A stretch of 64,000 bases of DNA from an uncultured delta proteobacterium (GCA_963789265.1 CAWBKB010000001.1:2272001-2336000); one strand, 5' to 3'; positions 55,234-56,685 are shown, counted from the stretch's first letter. Notes: a model not told the origin generated them from the letters alone. Program-made: numbers and translations.

Positions 55234-55394
55234 GAGCCATGATACTCCATCCAACGACAAGAGGCACCAGAATTCGGATCTCCCACAGTTATGATCCTAG
55301 GGTCACCCATTAAAAGGTCCTCTGTCAGGTCTATTTTTTCGGATTAGATTGCCATTTCTCTAGTTGCCTCAGCCCGTAGCGACTGTGTTGATTG

Positions 55395-56336
55395 TCAAGC
55401 AAAAACTTCTCGACAAGGTTGTCGGTCCCTGAGGACGGCATTTGCAATGACAAGCAACTTTCGCATGCAGGCCACTATGGCAACTTTGTAGAGTTTTCCC
55501 TCTTTCTCCAGTCTTTGGTAGAAGGGCCTGATCGTCTTGTTGTGCCTCGCGGCCGTCTTGGCGGCCATATAGAGGACGGTTCGTATTTCTTTCCTGCCGC
55601 CTATGCAGGATCGCTTTCCCCTCCTCTTCCCGCTGTCCCGGTTGAGAGGAGCCACACCGACGAGGCTGGCGATTTCCTGGCGGCTGACCTTCCCCAGTTC
55701 GGGGAGATGTGCCAGAAGGGTTCTGGCGGTCACGGGCCCAATGCCTTTGATGGTTTTCAGGAGTTTTACGTCCTCTTGCCAAAGAGGGGATTGCTTGATG
55801 GTGGTGTCTAGATCGTCGTCGATCTGCCGTATCTCCCGATCCAACGCGTCGATGACAGCCCTGATGCTCTGTCGAATTCGTTCTGTCCGAGCCTGGTGCA
55901 AACGGTTCTTTTCTCCAAACCGTAAGTCGACGAGCTGCCGACGACGGCTAACGAACTCTTTAATGAGCCTTTCTTCCTTTGTGGGAAGAAGCGTCAAGCG
56001 TGGCTTGATGGCTTCGCCATAACGGGCGAGAACCAGGGCGTCGATGCAATCGGTCTTTGCCAACTGTCCCATGGCCTTGGCAAAGTCCCGCACCTGACGT
56101 GGATTGACGATTGACACGGGCAACTCAGCCTCGATCAGCAGAGCAGCGGCCACGGCTTCATAACCACCGGTGGCTTCGAGGATGATCACCTCAGGCGCCT
56201 TGGGTCGAAGGCGCTTTACAAGCCGACCAATATCTTTGGCATTGTTGTGGCATTGCCATTTTTCATTGGATGGCAACACATGAATGTCCAAGGTTTCTTT
56301 CGCAACGTCTATGCCAACAAAAACTTTTTCCGCCAA
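55395..56336 (-). CDS. IS110 family transposase / bridge recombinase
   Basis: DEDD residues (GIDV, ILEATG, KTDCIDA), GIGP and catalytic Ser in NRDSG. Confidence 0.95.
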
Positions 56337-56344
56337 GTGTAATC

Positions 56345-56615
56345 TCCCTTCCTTGCGGATGCGGACTCACAAGATGGTCCTGGCGACTGTCCGGGGATGT
56401 TTGCACGTCGGCCTCCGGCGATCCAGCTACGCGACAGCCATCAATAGCTAAGGATGTGACGATCTGCCGGTGCCTCCGCGTGGTACGCTGGACAGGTACC
56501 ATGCGGGCGTGCATCCCCCCCTTACGCGGAAGTACCGTTTTTCACAAGTAACTAGGTACTTCCTAGTCAATCTTCCCCCCACTGTCGAAGGTACGTTCAT
56601 AAAAGAACAAATACC
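56345..56615 (-). ncRNA. Putative bridge RNA (ends approximate)
   Basis: Two internal loops carry guides CACATCCT/CGTAG (target) and ACAGTCGC/TGAG (donor) that match the element's own junctions. Confidence 0.75.
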
Positions 56616-56685
56616 TGGTAGAAACATACAAGGATGTGGCGAATTCCGCATCTCGCGAGATGAACCGCATCGCTCGCGGCATGAC

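Follow-up and report, generated by a model that had tools for sequence, protein, structure and literature searches.

The best described system close to the element analysed here is the IS621 bridge recombinase, reportedly the subject of Durrant et al. 2024 and Hiraizumi et al. 2024, and PDB 8wt6-8wt9 are structures of IS621 of Escherichia coli. Publication of the class dates from 2024, together with its guide code and with thousands of predicted orthologues, according to the available portion of PMC11208160, in line with the initial annotation of our locus, which had called the class described. The same portion of that source has IS621 carrying a -35 box in its right end that needs the circle, and inserting in the tails of REP elements that end in ...GGCCTAC(G). 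In the accessible part of PMC11208158, IS621 cuts after the CT of CTAC, and its right donor also reads CT-TGTAT by base names. In the structure given there, the RNA is base-paired at A157-U158 and C162-G165, flips out U159-U160 and forms a wobble between G161 and dT12.

The window is a stretch of 64,000 nucleotides from an uncultured delta proteobacterium (GCA_963789265.1 CAWBKB010000001.1:2272001-2336000), and its host genome comprises 6.06 Mb in 9 contigs. Unless a contig is named, positions below are those of the window. The element that we describe is very probably an IS110-group insertion sequence of the IS621-like kind, intact and mobile through recombination guided by a bridge RNA. The initial annotation had proposed this class, and the assignment now draws on Pfam and NCBIfam matches, homology to IS621 and ISCro4, a covariance-model match and the agreement between guides and flanks. 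The element is a well-formed new example of a known system, not a new kind of system, and knowledge of the mechanism is unchanged by it. Its unusual points are limited to a longer structured leader and a small palindromic remnant.

Boundaries, recombinase and bridge RNA

The limits of the element and its two cores are as follows.

55378..56632, minus strand: whole insertion sequence, 1255 bp including CT at both ends, from alignment with a second copy
56631..56632, minus strand: core dinucleotide CT at the left junction, from the sequence; CT precedes the TGTAT-like left ends of relatives
55378..55379, minus strand: core dinucleotide CT at the right junction, from the sequence and the relatives' left donor guide followed by CT

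A second copy in the same genome (copy 2, G000:C6:453242-454495) is 99.4% identical to the window element (copy 1). The alignment of the two spans element positions 1-1255 and stops there, with different flanks outside; copy 2 ends at exactly the same bases, which fixes the originally proposed boundaries, with the left end at 56632 and the right end at 55378 on the minus strand. Six substitutions and one 1-nt deletion separate the copies. Five of these seven differences lie at element positions 76-136, and none falls in the guides or the stems of the two loops described below. The left non-coding end measures 294 nt plus the core and the right one 15 nt plus the core. CT stands at both junctions in both copies (gccacatc-CT...CT-acgggctg for copy 1 and gaccacacc-CT...CT-acgcgagc for copy 2), and long terminal inverted repeats are absent, as the definition of the family has it.

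Contigs assembled from four DNA runs were compared with the window over 55100-56900. Copy 2 and an 81-nt remnant of the element are visible in them by their junctions; a joint across 55378-56632 is absent, as is any junction of right end to left end. A contig of run X4, from a relative that is 90-99% alike, goes without 282 nt inside the recombinase gene (window 55844-56127), and this gap probably reflects a copy with a deletion in another organism. A search of 30 relatives yielded no empty site; the single good flank match, in genome G001, stands beside another neighbour. The element occupies a divergent spacer between a gene for a TrmO (TsaA-like) tRNA methyltransferase (54745-55260) and one for a TetR-family regulator (56928-57584). 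Downstream of the TrmO-like gene, at 54579-54663, lie two more short repeat families. A hairpin repeat, GGATGACGGGCAAGATGCCCGTCCCACC, forms one of them (16 exact copies, and 80 when up to 4 mismatches are allowed). The second, a 32-nt unit, has 30 copies at up to 2 mismatches, and its core recurs at 97-100% identity in genomes of other families as well as of the same class.

The element encodes one protein.

55395..56336, minus strand: recombinase gene, 313 aa, TTG start, the only long reading frame of the element, with GGGAG 7 nt upstream
Residues D10, E54, D96 and D99 of its protein: catalytic residues of the RuvC-like domain
Residues S235-G236 of its protein: catalytic residues of the Tnp domain

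The protein matches the Pfam families DEDD_Tnp_IS110 (PF01548, E = 2.6e-21) and Transposase_20 (PF02371, E = 5e-20), and it scores 235 bits with the NCBIfam model NF033542, 'IS110 family RNA-guided transposase', for which the cut-off is 140. It was already named by the annotation pipeline. D10, E54, D96, D99, S235 and G236 are invariant across 32 relatives and align with the catalytic motifs of IS621, so that the DEDD and Ser residues are intact as first noted. The reading frames of both copies are open, and their proteins differ by one residue, F140S. The closest public protein relatives have 83-95% identity, and proteins up to 95% identical are present in public metagenomes on contigs of ~1.3 kb.

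The left end carries the predicted bridge RNA, for which the initial annotation had drawn two loops, the first around a hairpin, in the 294-nt 5' end.

56340..56473, minus strand: bridge RNA core, from the match to covariance model R1 and from covariation
About 56473-56411, minus strand: target-binding loop domain, part of the bridge RNA core
About 56397-56345, minus strand: donor-binding loop domain, part of the bridge RNA core
56436..56449, minus strand: hairpin in the target loop, AGCUA-UUGA-UGGCU (helix 2, 90.8% paired, compensatory changes at 4/4 pairs)
56363..56380, minus strand: hairpin in the donor loop, GGAC (56380-56377)...GUCC (56366-56363) (helices 4 and 5, 97.7% and 88.2% paired, with the covariance-model alignment)

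Relatives were taken from 17 loci in genome bins (39-53% protein identity) and 80 in metagenomes (46-58%); loci are labelled L004-L100 and proteins P0001-P0120. Their left ends gave a MAFFT alignment of 71 distinct segments. The structure tested consists of five helices, namely the outer and inner stems of the first loop, its hairpin, the stem of the second loop and its hairpin; it was entered by hand, and pairing was then counted on the alignment. Over the 71 left ends, 86.8% of the cells pair, compared with 69.9% in shuffled controls, and none of 500 shuffles reaches the observed value. Pairing falls to 38-55% when the 3' partners are slid by 1-3 columns, and compensatory changes on both sides are present at 21 of the 23 pairs. 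The two loops are thus conserved in the 71 relatives with covariation. RNAalifold on the 71-sequence alignment returned 10 pairs only, not the full structure.

Covariance model R1 (131 positions) was built from 54 relatives with the window left out. It matches 56340-56473 on the minus strand with 85.9 bits (E = 6.9e-20) over model positions 1-131 of 131, and its only two matches across the 6.06-Mb genome are the two copies. The initial annotation had named a covariance model as a check on the RNA, and the full-length match is its outcome with a model built from relatives (not a model of IS621). Rfam 15 gave no bridge-RNA match in 55200-56900 at permissive thresholds (best E = 1.4) and no match in the whole window at gathering thresholds.

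Guides and natural targets

Within the two loop domains, the following guide and handshake positions are predicted.

56451..56459, minus strand: left target guide UCACAUCCU, on the 5' side of the target loop, the final two bases of which read the core
56427..56433, minus strand: right target guide CGCGUAG, the complement of CTACGCG, from the flanks of the copies
C56426, minus strand: probable handshake base for donor position 7, 3' of the right target guide
56382..56390, minus strand: left donor guide ACAGUCGC(C), with 8 of 8 matches to the element's right end, ACAGTCG-C
56352..56360, minus strand: right donor guide, split, within GCAUCCGCAAG (56362-56352), from the alignment of relatives and covariation with the left end
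G56351 and A56350, minus strand: probable handshake bases for target positions 7 and 6, 3' of the right donor guide

The left target guide is identical at 8/9 positions to the left target and core of copy 1, CCACATCCT. At copy 2, CCACACCCT, it is identical at 7/9 positions, with one U.G wobble in addition (C for T), and its first base is a mismatch at the sites of both copies. The right target guide matches copy 2 at 7/7 positions (CTACGCG) and copy 1 at 6/7 (CTACGgG, with the mismatch at the sixth base), and its AG-C is invariant in 71 relatives. The flanks of other genomic copies had been put forward initially as a check, and those of copy 2 fit the target guides as well, including the full 7/7 on the right. 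Three of the four guides that the initial annotation had read in the loops stand. The left target guide CACATCCT (56458-56451) matches the left target at 8/8, the right target guide CGTAG (56431-56427) is part of the 7-nt CGCGTAG, and the left donor guide ACAGTCGC (56390-56383) matches the right end of the element at 8/8; all three lie in internal loops of the conserved structure.

The right donor guide had been misplaced. TGAG (56369-56366), which had been read as this guide, sits in the loop and at the 3' edge of the donor-loop hairpin, and it was rejected because the sequence of that hairpin loop is not conserved among relatives. The position predicted here is instead one in which GCAU..n..GCAAG is conserved among relatives. 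Set against CTTGTAT, AU (56360-56359) would pair with positions 6-7 (A, T), CC would be unpaired, G56356 would wobble with T, and CAAG (56355-56352) would pair with CTTG. Among relatives, this guide varies jointly with the left end, which reads CTTGTAT, CTTATGT, CTAGTAT, CTCCTAT or CTCGTAT. The handshake C lies opposite donor G7 in 68/70 relatives. The handshake G lies opposite target C7 as a Watson-Crick pair in 53/63, with 7 more accommodated by other pairs.

The ends of the relatives were located by means of their donor guides, with 70 of the 71 rows used (one was dropped with its guide cut off). Downstream of the RNA, at 0.8-1.3 kb, 64/70 relatives have CT preceded by the left donor guide's first 7 nt. 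Upstream, 64/70 have T(A/G) preceded by the complement of the right donor guide's last 4 nt. Because the ends were placed in this way, the target-guide matches alone test the code independently. When the window is excluded, the right target guide agrees with the 5 nt after the core at a mean of 4.56/5, compared with 1.65 +/- 0.14 for shuffled pairings; the agreement is 5/5 in 42 of 61 relatives, 4/5 in 15 and lower in 4. The left target guide agrees with the 7 nt before the core at a mean of 4.61/7 (n = 62), compared with 3.29 +/- 0.11 for shuffled pairings, again without the window, and its first one or two bases are usually mismatched in relatives. Another genome of the same genus carries a related element with the same scaffold and different target guides.

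The natural target of copy 1 belongs to a family of short repeats.

56633..56682, minus strand: REP-like repeat with the insertion site in its tail (CACATC-CT-AC), from paralogous repeats that agree with the rebuilt empty site
G000:C1:474872-474979, C3:88497-88634 and C7:404059-418033: further examples of the REP-like repeat

The left flank of copy 1 is one of these repeats. Two others (C1:1179022 and C1:1646854) follow the reconstructed empty site of copy 1 through the core as far as ...CTAC, after which they diverge. The motif CACATCCTACG has 13 exact occurrences in the genome, where about 3 are expected, and 12 of the 13 come after a palindromic repeat of the form GATGCG(G/C)TT...hairpin...TCA(C/G). 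By a loose pattern (GATGCGSTTY, hairpin, CRCATCCTAC), the genome contains some 81 members of the family, often arranged as inverted pairs with about 100 nt between the partners, and related REP-like repeats are found in other genomes of the genus. Y1-transposase-like (RAYT-like) frames adjoin two of the repeat clusters (C7:408888-409172 and C3:99734-99973). Because they form a palindromic family with relatives in the genus and have Y1-transposase-like genes beside their clusters, these repeats look like REP elements with a GTAG head. The programmed target predicted from the guides, (C)CACATC-CT-ACGCG, is the CTAC tail of the REP-like repeat; REP-tail (CTAC) targeting would thereby recur far from E. 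coli.

Copy 2 lies outside the repeats, at a look-alike site that has no REP-family similarity beyond the 14-nt target, and its rebuilt empty site has no paralogue in the genome. This copy (L002 777-1502) is inserted precisely at the stop codon that closes a 241-aa frame. Since the AG of the TAG comes from the core CT, the insertion leaves the end of the gene as it was. Unoccupied REP sites in the genome include one perfect match to the target and about ten with one mismatch.

Two further sets of elements were seen alongside. A second, different IS110-family element is present in three copies (G000:C1:1414398-1414829, C7:107074-107505 and C4:990-1421) with frames of about 360 aa. All three have CACCTCCTACG about 20 nt upstream of the gene, and model R1 gives no match to this element. 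In a genome of the same genus, two related elements stand head to tail, 5 nt apart (L137 1501-4047, G004:C40:44027-46573); they have 64-66% nucleotide identity to the window element, and the second goes without the invariant AGC of the right target guide.

Proposed mode of action and alternatives

Two promoter-like boxes and an additional leader complete the predicted layout.

55393..55398, minus strand: TTGACA, -35 box in the right end, from the sequence; it faces a -10 box only after circularisation
56623..56628, minus strand: TATGTT, -10-like box in the left end, from the sequence; 17 nt would separate it from the -35 box once the ends are joined in the circle
56474..56616, minus strand: extra 5' leader of the subclade, from alignment and RNAalifold of 5 left ends
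Parts of the leader: two hairpins (the first at 56616-56589) together with a 5' stem-loop and a long-range helix, UGCACG...CGUGCA

The steps proposed here, from circle and promoter to RNA, tetramer and strand exchange, are drawn by analogy with IS621. Excision as a circle would join ...TTGACAATCAACACAGTCG-CT to TGTATGTT... and so form the donor, which reads ACAGTCG-CT-TGTAT from the element ends, the same circle junction as initially predicted. The junction would also build a promoter from TTGACA, a 17-nt spacer and TATGTT. This promoter could drive an RNA of up to about 280 nt and then the recombinase mRNA, with a transcript that would run from the ~140-nt leader through the two loops to the recombinase gene. 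A recombinase tetramer would hold the bridge RNA, the donor loop of which would pair with the element ends through ACAGUCGC and the split AU/G/CAAG. Ser235 would cut after the CT core, and the strands would then be exchanged.

Among relatives, the -35 box matches at 5 or 6 of 6 positions and at the same distance from the end in 44/59, and the -10-like box matches TATAAT at four or more of six positions in 34/59. A simple promoter scan of the linear region found 0 sigma-70-like sites. Such a result would be expected of a promoter confined to the circle, and it is for the circle that we infer one.

The left end is ~100 nt longer than in most relatives, where it starts 35-60 nt before the first loop. 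The leader that makes up this length is common to the window element, the element of a congener, L021 and L022, where it adds about 100-140 nt on the 5' side of the bridge RNA, and it is missing in most other relatives. In the RNAalifold prediction from 5 left ends, the long-range helix UGCACG...CGUGCA encloses the 5' stem-loop together with the target loop. The 3' strand of the donor-loop stem shares bases with GGGAG, which lies 7 nt upstream of the TTG start. The leader and this overlap with the ribosome-binding site could conceivably act as a switch that couples folding or loading of the RNA to translation of the recombinase. Such a switch is not described for IS621.

An 81-nt remnant of the right end lies elsewhere in the genome (C1:2416346-2416426, where L003 1501-1600 corresponds to G000:C1:2416346-2416445). 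Its left edge abuts an inverted copy of its last 9 nt (AGCGACTGT), and the half-site ACGCG is found on both sides in inverted orientation. No simple insertion or deletion accounts for the small palindromic unit that the remnant thus forms. Separately from the suggested switch, it could be the footprint of recombination between half-sites; we regard both of these ideas as speculative and unlikely to be correct.

That the matches between loops and flanks arose by chance in a G+C-rich non-coding end might be thought plausible given how short the 4-nt and 5-nt matches of the initial annotation are; over two strands of 296 nt, about 0.6 occurrences of any one 5-mer are expected. The left-target 8-mer, which occurs once in the 296-nt left end, is expected there only ~0.009 times. 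The matches lie in loop columns that are homologous across 71 relatives, and copy 2 fits the 7-nt right target guide at 7/7. For about 60 other elements, moreover, this register predicts the flanks far better than shuffled pairings do. The guide-flank test on relatives already contradicts an origin by chance, to which we give practically no credence. A different objection is that the REP hairpin mainly chooses the target, through recognition by the protein or of a structure, with the RNA match secondary. Copy 1 does sit at the tail of a REP-like palindromic repeat, and a 2026 preprint gives, in its accessible part, a sequence-plus-structure rule for another IS110 element (10.64898/2026.03.19.712850). 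Against recognition of the hairpin, the site of copy 2 has no REP similarity beyond the 14-nt target and the guides of relatives track quite different flanks, and we consider it distinctly improbable.

Somewhat less improbable, while still unlikely, is an element that has the right anatomy and is no longer mobile, in which the guide matches record past insertions and the copies persist passively. In its favour, the genome has just 2 full copies besides one 81-nt remnant and leaves at least 11 well-matched REP sites vacant; the contigs of the four DNA runs show neither a circle joint nor an empty-site joint, and no run with RNA appeared among 20 runs. IS110 elements usually have a low copy number, however, and the two copies differ at only 7/1255 positions and by a single amino acid. 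Both frames are open, the catalytic residues are kept, and the guides and loop stems are untouched by the differences. We therefore continue to favour an intact bridge-RNA-guided insertion sequence, for which we infer activity and programmability; because only two copies exist while good REP sites stand empty, this activity may be low or past.

Comparison with known systems

If this reading is right, the locus offers an annotated environmental bridge-recombinase orthologue of which the guides, handshake bases, junction promoter and REP target can be read. It would be a usable candidate for the panels of orthologues that are screened for genome editing, and about 60 relatives share its code.

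The recombinase is a distant relative of that of IS621 (phmmer, 120 bits, E = 9e-34, residues 5-307). Both have the same two protein domains, and D10/E54/D96/D99/S235-G236 here correspond to D11/E60/D102/D105/S241-G242 of IS621, as numbered in the available part of PMC11208158; the aligned motifs are GID, EAT, KTDxxDA and SG. As in IS621, the RNA lies in a long left end opposite a short right end, two internal loops bear hairpins, and the core is CT. A left target guide of 9 nt and a left donor guide of 8 nt are also common to both, as is a right donor guide that is split by two flipped-out bases and includes a G.T wobble, so far as these are laid out in the accessible text of PMC11208158. The natural target is likewise at the ...CCTAC(G) tail of REP elements, as the available portion of PMC11208160 gives it for IS621.

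Several details differ from IS621. The target guides here specify CACATC/ACGCG, not the sequences of the E. coli REP. The flipped-out bases are CC, whereas they are UU in IS621, and the right target guide can pair over 7 nt, whereas it pairs over 4 in wild-type IS621. The RNA of IS621 is 177 nt long. The gene considered here has a TTG start codon, and, unlike IS621, the element is known from its sequence alone.

Among solved structures, the best match, by protein comparison only, is the ISCro4 transposase (PDB 9t56, E = 3.8e-35, residues 4-307), with which the motifs GIDV.K, EAT, KTD..DA and SG are conserved. ISPpu9 and ISPpu10 of Pseudomonas putida are also IS110-family elements in REP or conserved intergenic repeats, a likeness that extends to their available descriptions. 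Two other genomes of the genus carry related elements at 64-66% nucleotide identity. The uncharacterised IS110-group elements of soil, sediment and wetland, from metagenomes and genome bins, share the scaffold and the guide register with the window element. Among the loci for which DNA was compared, they have 39-58% protein identity to it, most of their left ends are ~100 nt shorter, and their target guides differ.
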